Both the position numbers and the translations under genes were made by a program. This document shows, piece by piece, positions 2,262 through 55,702 of a stretch of 64,000 bases of DNA; positions within the stretch are counted from its first letter, which is position 1, and each line of letters opens with the position of its first letter. The DNA is from Escherichia coli (GTDB lineage Bacteria > Pseudomonadota > Gammaproteobacteria > Enterobacterales > Enterobacteriaceae): assembly GCF_050320075.1 (NCBI RefSeq), contig NZ_CP190018.1; one strand, given 5' to 3'. Below the pieces are notes generated by a model. That model was not told the origin of the DNA, did not search any database, and worked only from the letters and a program-made list of their open reading frames with translations.

Positions 2262-5200
2262 ATGACATATCAGGCAATTTTCACTGGCTGGGATGATCTG
2301 ACGATTGAAGACCTTCTGGTCGCTTACCGGAAAGCAAAAGCCGATAGCTTCTTTGAGAATACATTTCCTGTTGCTATCAAATTTGCCGAGTATGAGCAGG
2401 AATTACTTGAAAACCTGCAAAAACTCTTAGATCTTTTGCAGAGCGAAGATGGATTCAGTAGCAATAAGAAGTTGATTGGCAAATTTCGATTGTTACCGAA
2501 AAAATTAACCACAAAGAAAAAACATGAATCCCAAAATGGACACGTCCACTTTTCTAATCCTAAACGAGCAGCCGACCATTTATTTAATAATTTTGATCTG
2601 ATACCAGAGTTTCGTATTATTGGTGACTTCCCGGTTGATAGTCACATTATCTCTGCACTATGGATTAACATGGTCGGGCATAAATTTGATGCCAGCTTAG
2701 ATAACTGTTGCTATGGCGCGCGGCTAAAGCGTATTCGTAATGATGAATTATTTAGCAATGAGCAGGATAATCCATTCCATATCAGTGCCGTGGGTTCTTT
2801 TAGCCCCTACTTCCAGCCCTACCAAAAATGGCGTGGTGATGGCTTAAAAGCTATACGTGACGAGTTGGAAAAAGATCGTGACATTATCGCCGCCTCACTG
2901 GATTTAAAAAGTTACTATCATTTTATTGATCCACTGGCTATAACCTCTGATGATCTCTATAACACACTAAACATAAAACTGACTGAGGATGAAAAAGCGT
3001 TTACTGCACAGTTAGCAGTATTCTTAAAGCACTGGTCTGACGGCGCAGCGGCATTTGGAAAGAAAATAGCGTACAAAACACCTGTTATTAATGGTGGTCT
3101 GGTCATTGGATTAACAGCCAGTCGGATCATTTCAAATATATTGCTACACCATTGGGATAAATTAGTCATTGAAAAACTATCACCAATTCACTACGGTCGT
3201 TATGTCGATGATATGTTCCTTGTAATACGCGATACAGGGACAATTACTAATAATCACGAATTTATGTTATTGCTGCAAGATAGGCTTGGCAATGATTGCG
3301 TTTATTTGAAAAACGAGCAAAAACAAATATGGCAAATACAGCAGGGCGAGCATTTCCAGGGTAAGACCACCATCCAGTTACAATCCGATAAGCAAAAACT
3401 TTTCGTGCTTCAAGGGAGGGCTGGAATAGACCTGCTCGACAGTATCGAAAAGGAGATCTACGAGCTTTCTAGTGAACACCGCTTGATGCCTTCACCGGAT
3501 CAACTGGAACACTCCACCGCAGCTAAAGTCCTTTCCGCTGCCGGTAGTGTAGGTGAAAATGCCGATACTCTGCGCCGTGCGGATGGATTAACCATTCGTC
3601 GTTTGGGCTGGTCACTGCAATTACGCTACGTTGAAACACTGGCACGAGATCTGCCTCCAAGTGAATGGAAAGAACAGCGGGAAGAGTTTTATCAGTTTGC
3701 CTACAACCATATTCTTAGGGCTGATAATCTATTTGCACATTTTAGTTATCTGCCAAGGCTGCTTGGCTTTGCTATCAGTATGAATGAATGGCAGCACGCG
3801 GAAAAAATTGTACTTAAAGCTTACGAATCCATCAACCTGTTGGCATCGGTGATTACTTCAGGTAAGGAAGTGAATATAAATGGTTGCAAAACTCGAGCAG
3901 TAAATGATCTTTGGCGCTGTATAAAAGGCACATTAAGCTGGCTATTTGTTGATGCAGCGACACGATATTACAGTCCTGACAGATTATTTCTTGATAAACG
4001 TTCAAAGAAAGAAGAGTGCCTTGCGGATACATTTTTTAATCATATTTCACAAAGTCTGACGAATCTAAAGGATTTACTGGATCTTCGCTTTGATTCAGCA
4101 GATTTTTATTTAAAAGCGCCATTGGTAGCTCGAGCTGATTTAGCAAAGGAACCTTATAAACAGATCGTAAAGAGTCAGTCGGCAGAAAAACTTGTTAATC
4201 AGCGTGATAGTAAAAAAGAAGTTAAAATACTGAAATTAATGAGCGACTCATCGCTTATTGATATTGACGTTATTAAGCTATTTTTGAAATCAACCAAGAA
4301 TACCCGACTGGAAAAAGTGGCTAAAGGAAATCGTAAGAACGAAAGTTACCTACCTTACATTTTCCCTACACGTCCTTTAACACCCGCTGAAATATCAGAA
4401 CTGGCCCCCGAATGTGTTGGATTACCCTCCACATCCGACAAAAAACCAGATGAGAGACCGTCCACCATTTGGGCAAAATATACTCAAGCATTACGCGGAG
4501 TATGGATCAAACCGACGTTGCTAGCATCGGAGCAGGACTCAGATGAAGCGACAAAAAAAGCTCGGCCTAAGAAATTCATTCATATTGGCACAGACAGGAA
4601 ACATAAAGTTGTCGTTGCGCTAACCAGCATTAAAACAGAGGAGGACGACTGGGCTAAAATGGCCTGCAATAAATCTAACTTGTCCCGTTCAAGGTACCAG
4701 CGGATTTCTGAACTGGTTAATGCAACATTGAAACTATCTCCTAAACCTGATTATGTTTTATTCCCTGAGCTTTCAATCCCGTTACGCTGGGTTAACAGTA
4801 TTGCTGATCGTTTGAGTTCGGCGGGTATCAGTCTAATTGCGGGAACAGAATACCGCCACTTAGACGATAATCAACTGAAGAGTGAGGCCGTACTTGTCCT
4901 TTCAGATAACAGACTCGGCTATCCAGCGAGTGTCAAAATATGGCAACCCAAGCTGGAACCCGCCGTAGGTGAAGATGAGGCATTATTTTCAATTTATGGT
5001 AAGTCTTGGGATTCGACACTTAATGTTAAACAACGTAAGCCGGTATATATTCATCACGGCGTCAATTTTGGCGTTATGATTTGCTCTGAACTCCAGAATA
5101 GTAAAGCGAGGATCCGTTTTCAGGGCGCACTCGATGCATTAATGGTATTGAGCTGGAATAAAGATCTAGATACGTTTGCATCGTTGATTGAATCAGCAGC

Positions 5201-50648: not shown

Positions 50649-51728
50649 ATGAGCACTATCACTAAAGAACGTATCGAATTGTTCATTAAATCCCCGCTTG
50701 AAAACGGGCTTACCCGTGGCGAACAAATGGAACTGGCACGAATTGCACTGGCATCACTGGAACGCGAACAGATTCGCCACGAGCATGCCAAATGGTCTGA
50801 CTCCACATTTGGCTGCGTTGGCCCCATTGGTCCACTGAAACACCTCTCAAAAGAGGCACTGGAAGCCGCAGCCGAACCAGACGATCTTAGCGAGTGGGCT
50901 GATATGCAGTTTCTGTTGTGGGATGCACAGCGCCGTGCTGGCATCAGCGATGCTGAAATTACCGCTGCTATGGAAGATAAATTGAAGATCAACATGGAGC
51001 GCCAGTGGCCTGAACCAAAAGATGGTGAGCCTCGCTTGCACATTAAAGAACCCGGCAACTCTCCGGTAATTCCGGATGGTTTATCCACGGTATGCGCTGA
51101 GGCTTATCAGGTTGTAGGAGTTATGGCAGATGCGCTTGGTGTATTCGGTGATGCAGCAGTACAGAAAGTTCTGGATAACCTGTCACAGCAAAAACTTGTT
51201 CACAGAGATGTGCTGCCGTTCTCGCTTCCGGTGACTCCGGATGGTTGGATAAGCTGTAGTGAGCGAATGCCTGTAATTGGCGAGCTAAATTGGAGAACTA
51301 GTTTTCCTTTACTGGTTACGTGTGAGATCGGCGTTATACCTGCTTATTACGGCTTTGTGAGCGTTAATGGTGATAGGCATTATGGCTTTATGGAGAGTCT
51401 TAAATACGGAGACGATAACGGCAACCATCCTCAAACTAATGAATATGGTCTGATTAGCAATGTCACACACTGGATGCCACTACCAGAACGCCGCAGGAGT
51501 CGAACAGTGAATAATGCAGAGTTATTTCAGAAAATTTCGGCTCTCGCGACTGAATGCCACGCTATAGCATCTGAGCTTGATGTTGGCGATGAACGAACCG
51601 AGATGTTCGAAATATACAGTGTGCTGCGCAATCTCTGTCGGCGTGGCTACGCCACTCAAGTAGGGCGAATGACTAACCCACTACTCTCATTCTGTGATGA
51701 GGATGACTCGGATGAGGATGACGAATGA
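50649..51728 (+). CDS. Hypothetical early protein (359 aa), acidic C-terminal tail
   Basis: Large ea-region-type ORF; possible DUF550/DUF551-like prophage domains (unverified recall). Confidence 0.5.
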   Translation: MSTITKERIELFIKSPLENGLTRGEQMELARIALASLEREQIRHEHAKWSDSTFGCVGPIGPLKHLSKEALEAAAEPDDLSEWADMQFLLWDAQRRAGISDAEITAAMEDKLKINMERQWPEPKDGEPRLHIKEPGNSPVIPDGLSTVCAEAYQVVGVMADALGVFGDAAVQKVLDNLSQQKLVHRDVLPFSLPVTPDGWISCSERMPVIGELNWRTSFPLLVTCEIGVIPAYYGFVSVNGDRHYGFMESLKYGDDNGNHPQTNEYGLISNVTHWMPLPERRRSRTVNNAELFQKISALATECHAIASELDVGDERTEMFEIYSVLRNLCRRGYATQVGRMTNPLLSFCDEDDSDEDDE

Positions 51729-52108
51729 TGCATAAATCAGTAGCCGGTGAGTTTCAGAAGGAAGTCGATAATACCACTGATCTATTGGACGATATTTTAA
51801 GCATTCTCGCGCTGCTTGAGGCTGGCGATTGGTCAGAACATTGCACTAAAACAGAGCTAGGCGGTCGGCTTGAAAGAGAGATTACACGACTGATTAGCGA
51901 TGCCCAAAATGATTTGTCACCTGAGCATCTCCCCTGCGATGTAGTTCTTGTGCCAGGGATGAGGATACACGAAGGCGTCAGAACGAAAACATTATTAACC
52001 GCATTACAGAGGAGAGCCGAACTAAGCTCGCGGATAAAGTTGATGCCATCCAAAATATTTGATGTCGTCAAATTTACGCCATCGCAACATACTGAGAGAG
52101 ATAAATGA
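51725..52108 (+). CDS. Hypothetical early protein (127 aa)
   Basis: ATGA-coupled ORF. Confidence 0.45.
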   Translation: MMHKSVAGEFQKEVDNTTDLLDDILSILALLEAGDWSEHCTKTELGGRLEREITRLISDAQNDLSPEHLPCDVVLVPGMRIHEGVRTKTLLTALQRRAELSSRIKLMPSKIFDVVKFTPSQHTERDK

Positions 52109-52731
52109 GCACGGTAGCGAACGATCTCACAGAAGATATTCTCAATGAAATTATTGCTGGTGCAAATACCTCGCTTGAGCAACTTCTTGCGTTAGCACTG
52201 AGAGCCGAACGTCGAGACAGAAATCGTTTTTATGAGCGATTACCAGGGAAGCGACCAGATAGATCGGATGAAGAAGGTTGCGATATAGACTACATGGAGC
52301 CTTCAGAGATTTATCAACTTGGTAAAGATGACGGCTGGAACGCTTATCACGATGCTGTGATGAAGTTGGATGAAAAAGTTAAACCTCTTTCTCGACCGGT
52401 AGATCACGGTTTCCGCGATAACTGCGAATGCTCTAGTTGCCAGACCACGACCCGTATTTGTTCCGAATTGACAGATAAGTCCAGCCTAATCTACGAAGTT
52501 AATGTAGGCGGTAATACATGGGTCGAATGCACAAGAGCTGCATACGTAAGAGCAAAAGACAAGGGTGAATTAACCAGAGTTGTTACCAATCACCCAAATA
52601 ATGAGCTTAAAGATCACCAGATTCGAGAACTGGTGAACGAGTTGAGAGATATTGCGGTTCAGTACCACGGAACGCAGCAATTGCGGGAGAAGATTGCCAG
52701 AGCAGTGAACAACTCAGTCCGTAAAAAATAA
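52105..52731 (+). CDS. Hypothetical early protein (208 aa) with Cys cluster
   Basis: 'CECSSCQ...C...C' cluster; last gene before hairpin. Confidence 0.45.
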   Translation: MSTVANDLTEDILNEIIAGANTSLEQLLALALRAERRDRNRFYERLPGKRPDRSDEEGCDIDYMEPSEIYQLGKDDGWNAYHDAVMKLDEKVKPLSRPVDHGFRDNCECSSCQTTTRICSELTDKSSLIYEVNVGGNTWVECTRAAYVRAKDKGELTRVVTNHPNNELKDHQIRELVNELRDIAVQYHGTQQLREKIARAVNNSVRKK

Positions 52732-52748
52732 GCAATAGTACGATAAAG

Positions 52749-52773
52749 AGGCCCCATGCTCTTGATGGGGCCT
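52749..52773. terminator. Hairpin (candidate bidirectional terminator)
   Basis: Stem aggcccca/tggggcct with 9-nt loop after 208-aa gene. Confidence 0.4.
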
Positions 52774-53170
52774 GTAGCAACTAGCGTTATGGACGCTGGT
52801 TTACGTACTCAATGATCGCTTTGATAATCGCGAACATCGGCGGCACGATTTTGAACAGTAAGTTAACCATAACAGGCCTCACTTAGTTTTATCGCGCCTA
52901 GCTGCAAATACCTTTGGGCTTGCCTTTGCAGTTGCAATATCTGTAGTCGCCAGATACTTACGGCACGATTTCGAGTTAAGGTAAGGTTTTAGAGTCACCA
53001 AAAACCTGGACTTAAATCTTCTTTGAGAACAACGATGTTTAGTAAATGGTCATTATTACCTGGTATGACCACTCAACGTTTCTTGATGAATCCAGTACAT
53101 TCGGTTAATCTTAATTCAGTCGCCAGATACTTATGGCTCAGGAACAGAGCCGCAAACTCTGTTTCCTTTT

Positions 53171-53201
53171 AAAAAGCCCAGCCTAGTCAACTGGGCTTTT
53201 T
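53171..53201. terminator. Bidirectional rho-independent terminator in intergenic region
   Basis: 'aaaaagcccag-cctagtcaa-ctgggcttttt' hairpin with A-run and T-run. Confidence 0.6.
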
Positions 53202-53496
53202 AATGTCTATTTTTAACCCAATGAACCTTCAATACCGTAACATCAGTGTCTTGCGAATTAAGATAGTGTGTATAGGTTATGCATGCAAGTACATAACTCT
53301 GTGGATAACTCAGGAAGGAAAAAGTAGCTCCCGCGCAATTTAGGCCAGACAAGGCTTTCGCAAAAGTCAACAGAGAGAAAAAATTTGTTAAAAATAACGT
53401 TTGTTGGAATTGTATATATTTATGCCTTTCAATAGTTAGCATCTTATTAACATCTTTTTTAAGAGATAGAGTTCAAAAATATATAGCTTCAACATA

Positions 53497-53516
53497 TACT
53501 GTATGTGTATACAGTA
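53497..53516 (+). promoter_or_regulatory. LexA (SOS) box
   Basis: 'tactgtatgtgtatacagta' = CTGT-N8-ACAG palindrome 17 bp upstream of humD-like start. Confidence 0.75.
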
Positions 53517-53532
53517 TTAAGAGGCGAGTATT

Positions 53533-53922
53533 ATGGGCTTCCCTTCTCCTGCGGCGGATTATGCTGAGAGCCGTATTTCTCTTGATCAGCAGATAATTAG
53601 ACATCCTTCAGCGACCTACTTCATGAGGGCAGCTGATAGTCATCATCGTGAGGGAATATTACAGGGTGCATTGCTGGTGGTCGATTCCTCACTTACCCCG
53701 GTTGATGGTTCTCTGCTTGTATGCGCTCTGGATGGGGAATATCGCGTAAAAAGATACCGGAAGTATCCACGTCAGCATCTGGAGGATTTAAGAACCGGTA
53801 AGAAGGAAGCATTGCCAAAGGATGACGATGGATGCACGGGCAGCAATGCCGTGTTTGGTGTGATCACTCACATTATCAACGACGCAAGAAGTGGCGAGTT
53901 TGATGATTGTCCCGTGATGTAG
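53533..53922 (+). CDS. humD: UmuD'-like protein (HumD-type; begins at the UmuD cleavage site)
   Basis: 'MGFPSPAADYAESRISLDQQIIRHPSATYF' aligns with UmuD from Gly25; conserved Ser/Lys positions; LexA box upstream. Confidence 0.65.
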   Translation: MGFPSPAADYAESRISLDQQIIRHPSATYFMRAADSHHREGILQGALLVVDSSLTPVDGSLLVCALDGEYRVKRYRKYPRQHLEDLRTGKKEALPKDDDGCTGSNAVFGVITHIINDARSGEFDDCPVM

Positions 53923-54227
53923 GAGAACTGATTAGGCGGTGCAATGCACCGCCTTTTTATCACACTGCGCGGAATGCGATTTCGCCAGGTATTACTTCAC
54001 CTTGCCAATACATTTGGACAGCAGACTTTCGGCGATGCGTTGCACTTGTTGAGCAGATTCCAGAAATCAGAGATTCATTCGACAAGGTTGCAAAGCGCGT
54101 TCCGGCATTCAAAGGAATCCTCAACGAATGGGATTCCCTCGTTGATCTGTTGAAGTCTGAAATGAAGATACACGGAAACAAAGCACCAGAGACTTACAGA
54201 AGAATTAGCGAGTTACGCAAGGACTAA
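53907..54227 (+). pseudogene. Possible umuC-like (Y-family polymerase) N-terminal remnant
   Basis: Overlaps humD stop as umuC does; weak matches 'CNAPPFY' and 'DFRRCVALV' to UmuC N-terminus; only 106 codons. Confidence 0.3.
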
Positions 54228-54317
54228 CCACAGCCTCATACTCGATGAGGCCTGTTCATTGCTCAATGATATCCAGACCTACCGCAATAATACCAATCCA
54301 ATAAATGGAGATTCCAG

Positions 54318-54665
54318 GTGGAAGAAGAAATCTTCACTCGTGAAGAGGCAGCGTCGTATCTGAAGGTAGACAAAGGCACTATCACGCAGTGGATACGAAG
54401 TGGACGACTTCAGGCCGCAAAGATAAATCCAGATAAACCTAAAAGCCCATATCGCATTTGCAAGTCAGACTGCATTGCGGCGCTTAAGTCTGTGAGACAC
54501 AATAGCGCGGTGAATGCGGTTGATGTGCAGGAGGTTAAAGCATGTCAATCAAACTACGCGGTGGCACGTGGCACTGCGATTTCGTCGCGCCAGATGGATC
54601 AAGAGTTAGACGCTCTCTTGAAACATCGGACAAAAGGCAAGCGCAAGAACTTCACGATCGTCTGA
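54318..54665 (+). CDS. xis: Excisionase (Xis)
   Basis: HTH 'FTREEAASYLKVDKGTITQWIRSGRL' typical of excisionases; upstream of and overlapping int; true 3' end uncertain. Confidence 0.55.
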   Translation: MEEEIFTREEAASYLKVDKGTITQWIRSGRLQAAKINPDKPKSPYRICKSDCIAALKSVRHNSAVNAVDVQEVKACQSNYAVARGTAISSRQMDQELDALLKHRTKGKRKNFTIV

Positions 54666-55702
54666 AAGCAGAAGCGTGGAGAGTAAAAAATCTCGGGGAA
54701 TCACCGAAAAAGCTATTCAAGGAAGCCTGCATACGGTGGCTGCGTGAGAAATCGGATAAGAAGTCCATTGATGATGACAAGAGCATTATATCGTTCTGGA
54801 TGTTGCACTTCAGAGAAGCCATTCTCTCTGACATAACAACAGAAAAAATAATGGAGGCGGTAGATGGGATGGAAAACCGCCGCCATCGCCTGAACTGGGA
54901 GATGAGCCGGGACAGGTGTTTGCGACTTGGCAATCCGGTGCCGGAGTATAAACCAAAGCTTGCAAGCAAAGGAACGAAGACGAGGCATCTGGCAATACTT
55001 CGCGCCATTCTCAATATGGCTGTTGAATGGGGATGGCTTGACAGGGCACCCAAAATATCAACACCACGCGTTAAGAATGGACGCATCAGATGGCTTACAG
55101 AGGAGGAATCGAAGCGCCTGTTTGCAGAAATTGCTCCTCACTTCTTCCCTGTGGTCATGTTTGCAATCACGACAGGCCTTCGCCGTTCCAACGTTACAGA
55201 CCTTGAGTGGTCACAGGTCGATCTGGATAAGAAAATGGCATGGATACACCCTGATGAAACAAAAGCTGGCAATGCGATCGGAGTTCCTCTTAACGAAACC
55301 GCATGCCAGATATTAAGAAAACAGCAGGGGCTCCATAAGAGATGGGTATTTGTCCACACCAAACCTGCCTACCGAAGCGACGGAACAAAAACAGCAGCGG
55401 TAAGGAAGATGAGAACCGACAGCAACAAGGCATGGAAGGGAGCGTTAAAGCGGGCAGGCATTAGTAACTTCCGCTTCCATGATCTGAGGCATACCTGGGC
55501 AAGCTGGCTGGTTCAGTCCGGTGTCTCTCTTCTTGCACTTAAAGAGATGGGAGGATGGGAAACTCTCGAAATGGTTCAAAGATACGCCCACCTTTCAGCC
55601 GGGCATCTCACCGAGCACGCAAGCAAAATCGATGCGATTATAAGTCGCAATGGCACAAATACGGCACAAGAGGAGAACGTGGTGTATTTAAATATGGGGT
55701 AA
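54542..55702 (+). CDS. int: Lambdoid tyrosine integrase
   Basis: 386 aa; catalytic 'HDLRHT' and 'RYAHL' motifs; stop 14 bp from att core. Confidence 0.85.
   Translation: MSIKLRGGTWHCDFVAPDGSRVRRSLETSDKRQAQELHDRLKAEAWRVKNLGESPKKLFKEACIRWLREKSDKKSIDDDKSIISFWMLHFREAILSDITTEKIMEAVDGMENRRHRLNWEMSRDRCLRLGNPVPEYKPKLASKGTKTRHLAILRAILNMAVEWGWLDRAPKISTPRVKNGRIRWLTEEESKRLFAEIAPHFFPVVMFAITTGLRRSNVTDLEWSQVDLDKKMAWIHPDETKAGNAIGVPLNETACQILRKQQGLHKRWVFVHTKPAYRSDGTKTAAVRKMRTDSNKAWKGALKRAGISNFRFHDLRHTWASWLVQSGVSLLALKEMGGWETLEMVQRYAHLSAGHLTEHASKIDAIISRNGTNTAQEENVVYLNMG

Follow-up and report, generated by a model that had tools for sequence, protein, structure and literature searches.

A predicted type I toxin-antitoxin-like module in the spacer upstream of humD in an Escherichia coli prophage

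The 64,000-nucleotide (nt) stretch of Escherichia coli DNA analyzed here (the window) contains, between the end of an early-left open reading frame (ORF) at 52731 and the start of humD at 53533, preceded by its LexA box, a spacer (52740-53530) that had been delimited in the same way by an earlier reading of the DNA letters (the sequence-only reading), and rightly described as AT-rich (39.1% GC, vs 48.1% for the window). That reading took the spacer for non-coding DNA, and on this point the comparative analysis leads elsewhere: the spacer appears to hold a small protein gene together with an antisense regulator, and the direct repeat noted in it corresponds to a predicted pair formed by a small RNA (sRNA) and its target. 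The interval 52745-53205, of about 460 base pairs (bp), is probably a self-contained type I toxin-antitoxin-like module, in which the gene for the putative antitoxin RNA lies upstream of the gene for a small hydrophobic peptide, divergent from it and without overlap (Table 1). Its self-contained nature is illustrated by copies found on Citrobacter and Klebsiella plasmids, which lack both humD and the neighboring segment related to the nrdAB promoter.

An sRNA gene located 5' of its target gene, divergent and non-overlapping, is the hallmark of a class that includes ShoB/OhsC, TisB/IstR-1, Zor/Orz and DinQ/AgrB (T1TAdb, PMC8594479). Among the features expected in this class, a small coding ORF for a hydrophobic peptide of about 20-60 amino acids (aa) is represented here by a 27-aa ORF with a Shine-Dalgarno (SD) sequence and codon bias, and a non-overlapping sRNA gene, placed 5' of the toxin gene on the other strand and equipped with a promoter and a terminator, by the predicted elements. 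Complementarity of the sRNA to the mRNA, for which 15 nt is the minimum, here extends over 20 nt with one G·U pair. The toxin mRNA of such systems should also have a definite promoter and a long leader, structured or processed; here the leader helices are supported by comparison, and no convincing promoter was found. By analogy with DqlB/agrB, the peptide would be toxic and the sRNA would protect from it; the module is presumably transcribed, the peptide gene from a promoter of its own, and may act in addiction.

Table 1. Features of the spacer and its right-hand border, in window coordinates
Feature	Position	Strand	Remarks
Toxin-mRNA terminator hairpin	52749..52773	-	Stem AGGCCCCAT/ATGGGGCCT; terminator scan; begins 14 nt past the stop codon
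27-aa hydrophobic ORF, putative type I toxin, type b	52787..52870	-	MVNLLFKIVPPMFAIIKAIIEYVNQRP; ATG 52870-52868, TAA 52789-52787
Element E3	52849-52842	-	AUCGUGCC, identical to E1 (direct repeat); inside the ORF, codons 8-10; alternative partner of E2
Shine-Dalgarno GTGAGG	52877..52882	-	6 nt upstream of ATG; read from the sequence
Element E2	52891..52898	-	GGCGCGAU; just upstream of the SD; pairs with E1 or E3; RNAduplex in 11 lineages
Invariant leader hairpin (CUGCAAA...UUUGCAG)	52902..52931	-	Most conserved block of the family
Predicted sRNA-binding site (repeat copy 1, 52945-52964)	52937..52964	-	Target hairpin stem 52937-43/52951-57, loop 52944-50 GCGACUA
Element E1	52962..52969	-	AUCGUGCC; abuts/overlaps the sRNA-binding site; pairs with E2
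5' hairpin of the toxin leader (AGGUUUU...AAAACCU)	52984..53007	-	89% paired, compensatory changes at 3 pairs
sRNA promoter	53083..53111	+	-35 TTGATG 53083-88, 17-bp spacer, -10 TAATCT 53106-11; conserved in 11 lineages
84-nt sRNA, putative antitoxin	53118..53201	+	Seed 53118-53137, stem-loop 53141-53166, intrinsic terminator 53169-53203
Possible ~83-nt RNA from the nrdAB-like promoter to the shared terminator	53171..53253	-	Deduced from promoter and terminator positions
nrdAB promoter and upstream region, copy	53260..53398	-	-10 TATCTT 53265-60, -35 TTGCAT 53288-83, DnaA box TTATCCACA 53308-00, second weaker box
humD promoter TTCAAA-17-TATACT	53472..53516	+	Perfect LexA box TACTGTATGTGTATACAGTA at 53497-53516
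humD (S24 peptidase / HumD family)	53533..53922	+	RefSeq; right-hand neighbor, outside the module

A small hydrophobic peptide gene

The sequence-only reading saw no convincing ORF in the spacer and set aside the longest candidate, an 80-aa minus-strand frame (53200-53442). This dismissal is upheld, as the frame is interrupted by stops in 4 of the 9 aligned family sequences and by a frameshift in one more. What had been overlooked is a 27-codon minus-strand ORF running from 52870 to 52787, with GAGG 6 nt before its ATG and substitutions of the coding type; a spacer with no ORF above 60 aa, and with no SD in front of a long one, does not equal a non-coding spacer. In every homologous ORF, GAGG, GGAGG or AAGG is present 6-9 nt upstream of the start. 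Within E. coli, relatives of the ORF differ by seven synonymous and two amino-acid changes (K17E and V2L), and by one exchange of the ATG start for GTG. More distant copies (68-76% DNA identity), carried by Citrobacter and Klebsiella plasmids and by IMG/VR contigs, encode a peptide of the same kind (type b, MVNLLMKLLPPLVSIIVMVVDYFNKR and others), a paralogous one (type a, MQMLLLFLKLAHPVTVIIMTLLGFWKNR and MFLLLLKLAHPVAVIIMTLLEYWKDR), or both in tandem, as in Klebsiella and Citrobacter, each ORF having a separate SD. At the first, second and third codon positions, type b sequences show 204, 86 and 383 pairwise differences and type a sequences 94, 38 and 134, a bias that is the signature of translated sequence, and judged by this comparison the 27-codon ORF is under protein-level selection. 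Both peptide types share the motif M..LL.K...P...II...(E/D)(Y/F)...R, and their best 19-residue hydropathy window reaches 1.85 for the E. coli peptide and 1.85-2.13 across the family.

The hairpin at 52749-52773, already pointed out by the sequence-only reading, is present and resembles a minus-strand terminator (fold z-score -3.6). Across the family its stem is kept and its loop varies, homologues showing GGCCC/GGGCC hairpins followed by T runs at the same place; a hairpin retained after the stop codon while its loop changes can be taken as the terminator of the peptide mRNA.

Annotation gives no hint of this gene. RefSeq shows no feature inside the spacer, either in the window counterpart or in the plasmid relatives examined; scans of all spacer ORFs of 26-80 aa against Pfam, NCBIfam and PHROGs returned no match; and an exact look-up in a large protein collection retrieved the peptide solely as an unnamed or hypothetical protein. 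Among the other frames considered, a 46-aa plus-strand ORF (ypaB-like frame) is broken by stops or frameshifts in relatives, like the 80-aa frame. A 49-aa plus-strand ORF, which overlaps the sRNA, stays open throughout the E. coli set, and so does a 40-aa minus-strand ORF, the set being too uniform to discriminate in both cases; the start and stop of the latter are not conserved in distant relatives. These candidates were rejected.

A predicted divergent small RNA and its target

The part of the spacer comprising the leader of the peptide gene and the sRNA (52871-53201) is the most conserved, with 95% invariant columns in a nine-member alignment vs 59-78% in the flanks. On the plus strand, a promoter of the form TTGA(A/T)G - 17 bp - TAA(G/T)(C/A)T is found at a fixed distance from the repeat in 11 of 11 lineages, the sequence of its spacer being different from one lineage to another, and the predicted transcription start coincides with the first base of repeat copy 2, which begins 7 nt after the -10 element. 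The resulting RNA is predicted to fold into a 5' mini-hairpin (GCCA...UGGC), a stem-loop of 9-10 bp (53141-53166) and a terminator, with a fold z-score of -5.76. This terminator had been described as bidirectional, which proves accurate: it consists of 13-nt arms that form a perfect inverted repeat (53169-53181 / 53191-53203), flanked on each side by T/A runs. Consensus folding of 12 sequences (alifold and pair counts) leaves 94.4% of the cells of the sRNA helices paired, vs 32-59% when the partners are slid; compensatory changes include GC<->AU exchanges in the terminator and UA<->GU or AU<->UA exchanges in the stem, and 500 shuffles all fall short of the covariation score.

A covariance model built from the family sRNAs (R1) finds exactly one copy in the window (94.7 bits), and locates an sRNA upstream of and divergent from the toxin homologue in 20 of 20 further IMG/VR loci, which had been retrieved through the peptide only. 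In the alignments, the predicted sRNA promoter, RNA helices and terminator are conserved, and in the loci examined the putative toxin and the sRNA always occur together. The sequence-only reading had envisaged a discrete transcript ending at the terminator (53171-53201) on one strand or the other; its plus-strand version, as a predicted sRNA, is well supported by comparison (promoter in 11 lineages, start at repeat copy 2, covarying helices), whereas a minus-strand RNA is plausible but weak. The segment was moreover judged not to be a remnant of a longer gene, the outcome that the same reading had named as running counter to it.

The direct repeat is real as well (0 of 100 window shuffles give any repeat match), its copies (52945-52964 and 53118-53137) being 20 nt long, not 18 as first noted, with limits displaced by 1-2 nt, a spacing of 173 nt and one C/T difference. 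These copies do not bracket a unit, as had been thought: copy 2 forms the 5' end of the predicted sRNA, and copy 1, read on the minus strand, is a leader site ending 75 nt before the ATG, that is, the complement of the sRNA. The potential duplex comprises 20 bp, 19 of them Watson-Crick and one G·U. The repeat itself changes with the lineage (GATACTTA in E. coli, GATACATT in Citrobacter, GTTAACAA in Klebsiella), and in 10 lineages eight of its columns change identically in both copies, all positions of the core (2-20) remaining Watson-Crick or G·U. Of the differences between copies, 20 are transitions compatible with wobble pairing; the others, 2 incompatible transitions and 7 transversions, all lie at the edges. 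Additional lineages display the same concerted, wobble-directed pattern. Such directional differences fit RNA-RNA pairing and not protein-binding DNA repeats, and on this evidence the predicted sRNA seed and leader target co-evolve. A shuffle control on the whole-sRNA RNAduplex was uninformative, because the terminator dominates the energy.

Leader structure and a proposed mechanism

The toxin mRNA probably begins just upstream of the 5' hairpin of the leader. Further downstream, the target hairpin (95% paired, with compensatory changes such as GUUAAC/GUUAAC in Klebsiella) covaries with the sRNA site, and its loop is complementary to the 5' end of the sRNA, about half of the site being folded with the segment that follows. 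It is succeeded by the invariant hairpin, whose 7 stem pairs are all identical in the 12 sequences of the leader alignment; used as a search pattern, this invariant block led to 28 IMG/VR loci. The E1:E2 helix is 92.7% paired and also displays compensatory changes. When the four leader helices (5' hairpin, E1:E2, target hairpin and invariant hairpin) are considered together in 12 sequences, 94.2% of positions are paired, vs 30-46% in slid controls, with six pairs changed on both sides (0 of 500 shuffles). The alternative pairings E1:E2 and E2:E3 recur, with different sequences, in loci where a type a ORF comes first and in those where a type b ORF does.

How could an sRNA act at such a distance? 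Pairing far upstream of the ribosome-binding site means that repression must take an indirect path, by way of either a standby site or a structural switch. Mutually exclusive leader helices have been proposed for dinQ (PMC5066626), to which the E1/E2/E3 elements would be analogous. A switch of this kind may operate as follows: the single-stranded 5' end of the sRNA (AGUCGC) would touch the loop of the target hairpin (GCGACU), the duplex would then grow into E1 (AUCGUGCC), and the freed E2 (GGCGCGAU) would pair with E3 (AUCGUGCC) within codons 8-10, shutting the ribosome-binding region. Since the sRNA duplex overlaps E1, by 3 nt in E. coli and by 7-8 nt in other lineages, its binding should release E2 to pair with E3. 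Cutting of the sRNA-leader duplex by RNase III could provide an alternative or additional route. The peptide would not be made as long as the unstable sRNA continues to be produced. With a seed, a target hairpin and a three-element leader switch all predicted, the module offers a compact system for work with compensatory mutations.

Two further traits of the leader deserve mention. A CU-rich element (CCUUACCUU, 52974-52982, minus strand), just 3' of the 5' hairpin, is complementary to the SD region (52877-52884), and relatives L016 and L017 show a perfect CCUUACU:AGUAAGG match between the two; it suggests a 5'-locked mRNA activated by processing, as in dinQ or zorO. In most relatives outside E. 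coli (L018, L026, L019, L013, L014 and L035, aligned to 52955-52880, minus strand), an AUG within the sRNA-binding site is the start of a frame (MYLATTD..TAKASPRVFAARR..) whose end falls in the toxin SD or close to it, reminiscent of mok/hok coupling; the window copy has AAG instead of AUG. In some lineages a mok-like leader ORF of this kind, with its AUG in the target site, stays open through the invariant block; it was rejected as a general feature, its starts and stops not being conserved.

Relationship to known type I systems

The closest known system is DinQ/AgrB, from the arsR-gor region of E. coli K-12, together with its plasmid relative DqlB/agrB of pOXA-48, shown experimentally in 2025 to be an addiction module (PMC12365149). 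Like these, the module described here associates a gene with a long leader, for a single-helix peptide of about 27-31 aa, with an upstream, divergent and non-overlapping sRNA gene whose product repeats in its 5' part the antisense of a leader site, and the distance from target to start codon is equal or nearly so (75 nt here, 75 nt in K-12 dinQ, 74 nt in pOXA-48 dqlB).

Given this common gene order and geometry, could the module be a true but highly diverged member of the DinQ/AgrB-Dql group and not a separate family? The question is one of classification, and either answer is compatible with the proposed mechanism. The best Rfam match is indeed AgrB, through a shared GAGCC.C.AACUC hairpin, the R1 model weakly finds agrB of pOXA-48 (25.6 bits, mostly through the terminator), and the N-terminus MVNLL of the peptide resembles MINLL of DqlB. 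However, the peptide, the leader and the promoter are without detectable sequence similarity to those of DinQ/AgrB and DqlB/agrB. The NCBIfam models of DinQ and DqlB (NF041472 and NF041473), which recover their controls with 54 and 73.5 bits, respectively, match none of four family peptides at E<=10, and hhalign of the peptide family against DinQ and DqlB gives probabilities of 4.8% and 0.2%. In blastn searches (word size 7), the module matches dinQ or dqlB at chance level only (E>=0.5), whereas dinQ and dqlB are collinear with each other down to E 8e-6. Kristiansen et al. 2016 recognized dinQ-like (dql) genes by the nucleotide similarity of their 5' untranslated region to that of dinQ, a similarity that was not found when the module was compared with dinQ and dqlB.

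At the RNA level, the Rfam covariance search suggested by the sequence-only reading gave sub-threshold matches only when run by E-value over 51500-55000, namely AgrB (RF02891, 27.6 bits against a gathering score of 40, E 0.096), RNAI (23.1) and Thr_leader (21.4), mainly driven by the terminator. The AgrB model likewise returned no match at E<=1 for relatives L013-L016, in a test of low power, as it also misses the validated agrB of pOXA-48 (L047), and the R1 model did not find agrA or agrB of K-12. The organization differs too: one sRNA copy is present, with no counterpart of AgrA, the module has no LexA box, in contrast to dinQ, the peptide carries a central Pro-Pro and a polar C-terminus unlike DinQ and DqlB, and some relatives bear two tandem paralogous ORFs on one leader. 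With an organization in common but every sequence-based test of membership failing, the module is filed here as a new family of a known kind: most likely it represents an undescribed family that would work like DinQ/AgrB, membership in the latter not being demonstrated, and a diverged DinQ/AgrB-Dql member is the minority option, somewhat unlikely although it deserves serious consideration. The 75-nt geometry, common to systems with no detectable similarity, bears on the question of convergence versus common ancestry of type I leaders. A literature search for the peptide and for the RNA/DNA strings returned nothing relevant; the supplementary lists of Fozo 2010 and Kristiansen 2016 were outside its scope, and a listing there is possible.

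The resemblance to other systems is looser. In ZorO/OrzO and TisB/IstR-1, a trans-encoded divergent sRNA likewise pairs, over about 18-20 nt, with a part of the long leader that lies far from the ribosome-binding site on its upstream side (PMC8594479). Their sequences are unrelated to those of the module, tisB is LexA-controlled, unlike the module, and both systems are chromosomal, whereas the family described here mostly inhabits plasmids and phage-plasmids. The zorO leader, according to a study devoted to it, is reportedly long. Hok/Sok, from plasmid R1, provides another parallel, with a small membrane toxin that stabilizes a plasmid and is checked by an unstable antisense RNA, as proposed here, and with an upstream frame, mok, ending at the toxin SD, as the possible upstream frame does in some relatives. 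In contrast, Sok overlaps its target in cis, the sRNA described here being trans-encoded, the upstream frame is not conserved across the family, and the peptide is half the size of Hok.

Is the peptide a toxin?

Several observations weigh against a toxin-antitoxin module. Both RNAs and the peptide are known here from sequence alone. The hydropathy of the peptides (1.85-2.13, with central prolines) lies below that of known type I toxins (2.27-2.56 in DinQ, TisB, ZorO and ShoB), and none of the toxin models in NCBIfam, Pfam or PHROGs recognizes the 27-aa peptide. The whole-leader fold z-score is not significant (-1.06), and the covariation shuffles, for the sRNA as for the leader, take no account of relatedness, and the structures they test come from the E. 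coli sequence. For the toxin mRNA, a promoter scan and hand inspection of the alignments yielded no convincing sigma-70 promoter, the best candidates matching 8 of 12 positions and not transferring to the E. coli copy. These were TTTACT-17-TTTAGT in Citrobacter and a conserved (G/A)A(A/T)TTT located 6 nt before the 5' hairpin, both rejected as weak and as a misfit to the E. coli copy. As for a LexA box that could control the toxin, CTGT-N8-ACAG is absent from 52740-53210 even with one mismatch allowed, the nearest occurrence being the humD box (53499-53514).

Some of these observations would suit a different role for the same genes, in which they would form no toxin-antitoxin pair and the peptide would be a benign membrane protein of the phage or plasmid, such as an exclusion factor or a modulator of a host transporter, whose synthesis the sRNA would tune. 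A hydrophobicity inferior to that of DinQ, TisB, ZorO and ShoB, the central PP motif and the lack of a match to toxin models all go in this direction, toxicity being a prediction. Yet the whole architecture, with a divergent sRNA, a target about 75 nt before the AUG, a long structured leader, tandem paralogous ORFs and a plasmid or phage-plasmid habitat beside replication and stability genes, is so far known from type I systems (T1TAdb). The strict linkage of the putative toxin to its sRNA and the extreme conservation of the RNA parts argue in the same sense, and we regard the benign peptide as unlikely.

It is very improbable that the spacer is non-coding after all, its sole product being a free-standing prophage sRNA, from either strand, acting on host targets, with repeats that are incidental. 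Features of the sRNA are real and host targets are possible, but such an RNA would explain neither the coding signature of the 27-aa ORF, nor the co-evolution of the seed with a target in cis, nor the strict linkage with the ORF. Least credible of all, the 20-bp repeats could be DNA-level sites (iterons or operators) and not RNA partners. A plasmid-borne region with two direct copies at a spacing of 173 bp would be in keeping with this, and gene conversion could be another source of concerted evolution, but in the core (2-20) the copies differ only by C->T or A->G, the direction that preserves G·U pairs, a third segment covaries with copy 1 so as to preserve a hairpin, and the predicted +1 of a conserved promoter is precisely the first base of copy 2, beyond which a terminator lies.

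Distribution and mobility of the module

Among 5426 complete E. coli genomes, 113 (about 2%) have the module, with 105 of its places on plasmids and 9 on chromosomes. It also occurs in 98 plasmids of PLSDB, including some from Citrobacter, Klebsiella, Enterobacter and Kosakonia, and at 40 loci of IMG/VR. An exact scan of about 100,000 species-representative genomes with the leader block gave a single match, on a Citrobacter contig. No annotation lies under the module among the E. coli matches listed, nor in the RefSeq plasmid loci examined; the proposed toxin-antitoxin-like family is an overlooked one, unmarked by annotation and unrecognized by family libraries.

Relatives of the spacer are plentiful, with 90-100% identity, among E. 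coli plasmids of about 92-120 kb of the pLF82/phage Cyrano type, which we take to be SSU5-like phage-plasmids. Plasmid neighborhoods of the module are of the maintenance type with, for instance, an adjacent RepB gene or a Phd antitoxin gene nearby. On the pLF82/Cyrano-type plasmids, its main habitat, the module would provide post-segregational killing and, if it is an addiction module, it would help to explain the stable carriage of these plasmids.

In the window, the host element is a P22-like prophage (with ERF, anti-RecBCD and Ead/Ea22 genes, and xis/int) inserted at the thrW gene for tRNA-Thr, next to proA. The chromosome of E. coli SB0258h1 is 100% identical to window positions 52700-53560, and a block extending from 51239 to 54023 (two ea-type ORFs, the spacer, and humD with its terminator) is 96-99% identical to the pLF82/Cyrano-type plasmids. 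This shared block of about 2.8 kb amounts to a mosaic exchange involving temperate elements of two distinct kinds, in which the module would have traveled with humD into the prophage at thrW. A strong plus-strand terminator follows humD at 53934-53954. The homology with phage-plasmids stops at 54023, where RefSeq indicates an N-terminally truncated pseudogene (54021-54227) just before xis/int, and this end is probably the recombination joint of the mosaic.

Some relatives carry elements of their own next to the module. Just past the sRNA terminator, the Citrobacter and Klebsiella plasmid copies share a conserved non-coding element of about 150 bp that is absent from the window (ACTACATrTAGGGG ... 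GCTATATGGTGAGTATTCTAGTA ... AAGAGTTGATTTT ... GTTAAATTGAGGTTG; L013 ~1815-1935, L014 ~1880-1975, L015 ~1860-1960, L016 ~1830-1950). Tandem GGTTTAGAAC / GAACGG repeats, also not found in the window, lie between the divergent promoters of L018 (~390-420) and L026 (~390-430), and could be the operator of a regulator.

A captured nrdAB promoter next to humD

Between the module and humD, the segment 53205-53532 is a divergent promoter region, made of a leftward copy of the nrdAB promoter and of the LexA-controlled humD promoter. Read on the minus strand, 53398-53260 is identical at 114 of 140 positions (81%) to the upstream region of E. coli nrdA (positions 3001-3144 of the chromosomal sequence compared; E 2e-35), a region whose chromosomal counterpart bears the RefSeq label 'ypaB'. 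In phage P7 the copy is closer still, with 123 of 130 positions identical (95%; P7 2990-3120), and in P7/P1-like phages the same host segment is joined to the same humD-type LexA promoter, the segment 53401-53532 being common to these phages and 93% invariant in the family. The presence of an nrdAB promoter copy with DnaA boxes illustrates the capture of host regulatory DNA by phage-plasmids.

The copy retains, in collinear order, both DnaA boxes of the E. coli nrdAB promoter, the -35 element, the 17-bp spacing and the -10 element with 'box 0'. In nine aligned sequences, the 17-bp spacer is variable but the -10 and -35 elements on either side of it do not change, and neither does the DnaA box, which points to a working promoter. 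Unlike the chromosomal promoter, the copy lacks the nrdA leader, and it runs after about 83 nt into a terminator, not into a gene. The functional site of the NrdR repressor consists of box 1 and box 2, downstream of the -10, 'box 0' being non-functional (PMC12176259). Since the homology stops at the -10, boxes 1 and 2 are absent: in 53260-53398, 'box 0' alone is kept, at about 12 of 16 positions.

What would such a promoter do next to the module? A short minus-strand RNA of about 83 nt, ending at the shared terminator, is a plausible but weak candidate; its first ~16 nt are invariant and its middle is variable, and besides the terminator no conserved helix was found in it. The A-tract that makes the sRNA terminator bidirectional exists only in E. 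coli-type modules, those that have the nrd-like neighbor, and is absent from the Citrobacter and Klebsiella copies, the simplest reading being that the bidirectional terminator insulates the module from the nrdAB-like promoter. A more elaborate scenario, which we consider improbable, would make this promoter part of the circuit as an 'anti-antitoxin': firing toward the sRNA, it would lower the antitoxin, by convergent transcription or by a duplex at the 3' end (over its last ~31 nt, the sRNA could pair completely with the ~83-nt RNA), and release the toxin when the control by DnaA is relieved, as under replication stress or a change in ATP-DnaA. If true, killing or dormancy would be coupled to the replication state of the host, beside a humD gene controlled by LexA.

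The nrd-like promoter of P7 faces two minus-strand ORFs without annotation (2579-2716 and 2847-2912), into which it reads. The shorter, of 21 aa, has a strong SD; the longer, a very hydrophobic ORF of 45 aa (MNAFFQFLSAFLDAPIISQILAIILIIVLILLLRSVKNGIMHWLT), is followed by a hairpin and may encode another small membrane protein or toxin. The only match, a weak one, was to PHROG 1184 (E 0.058).

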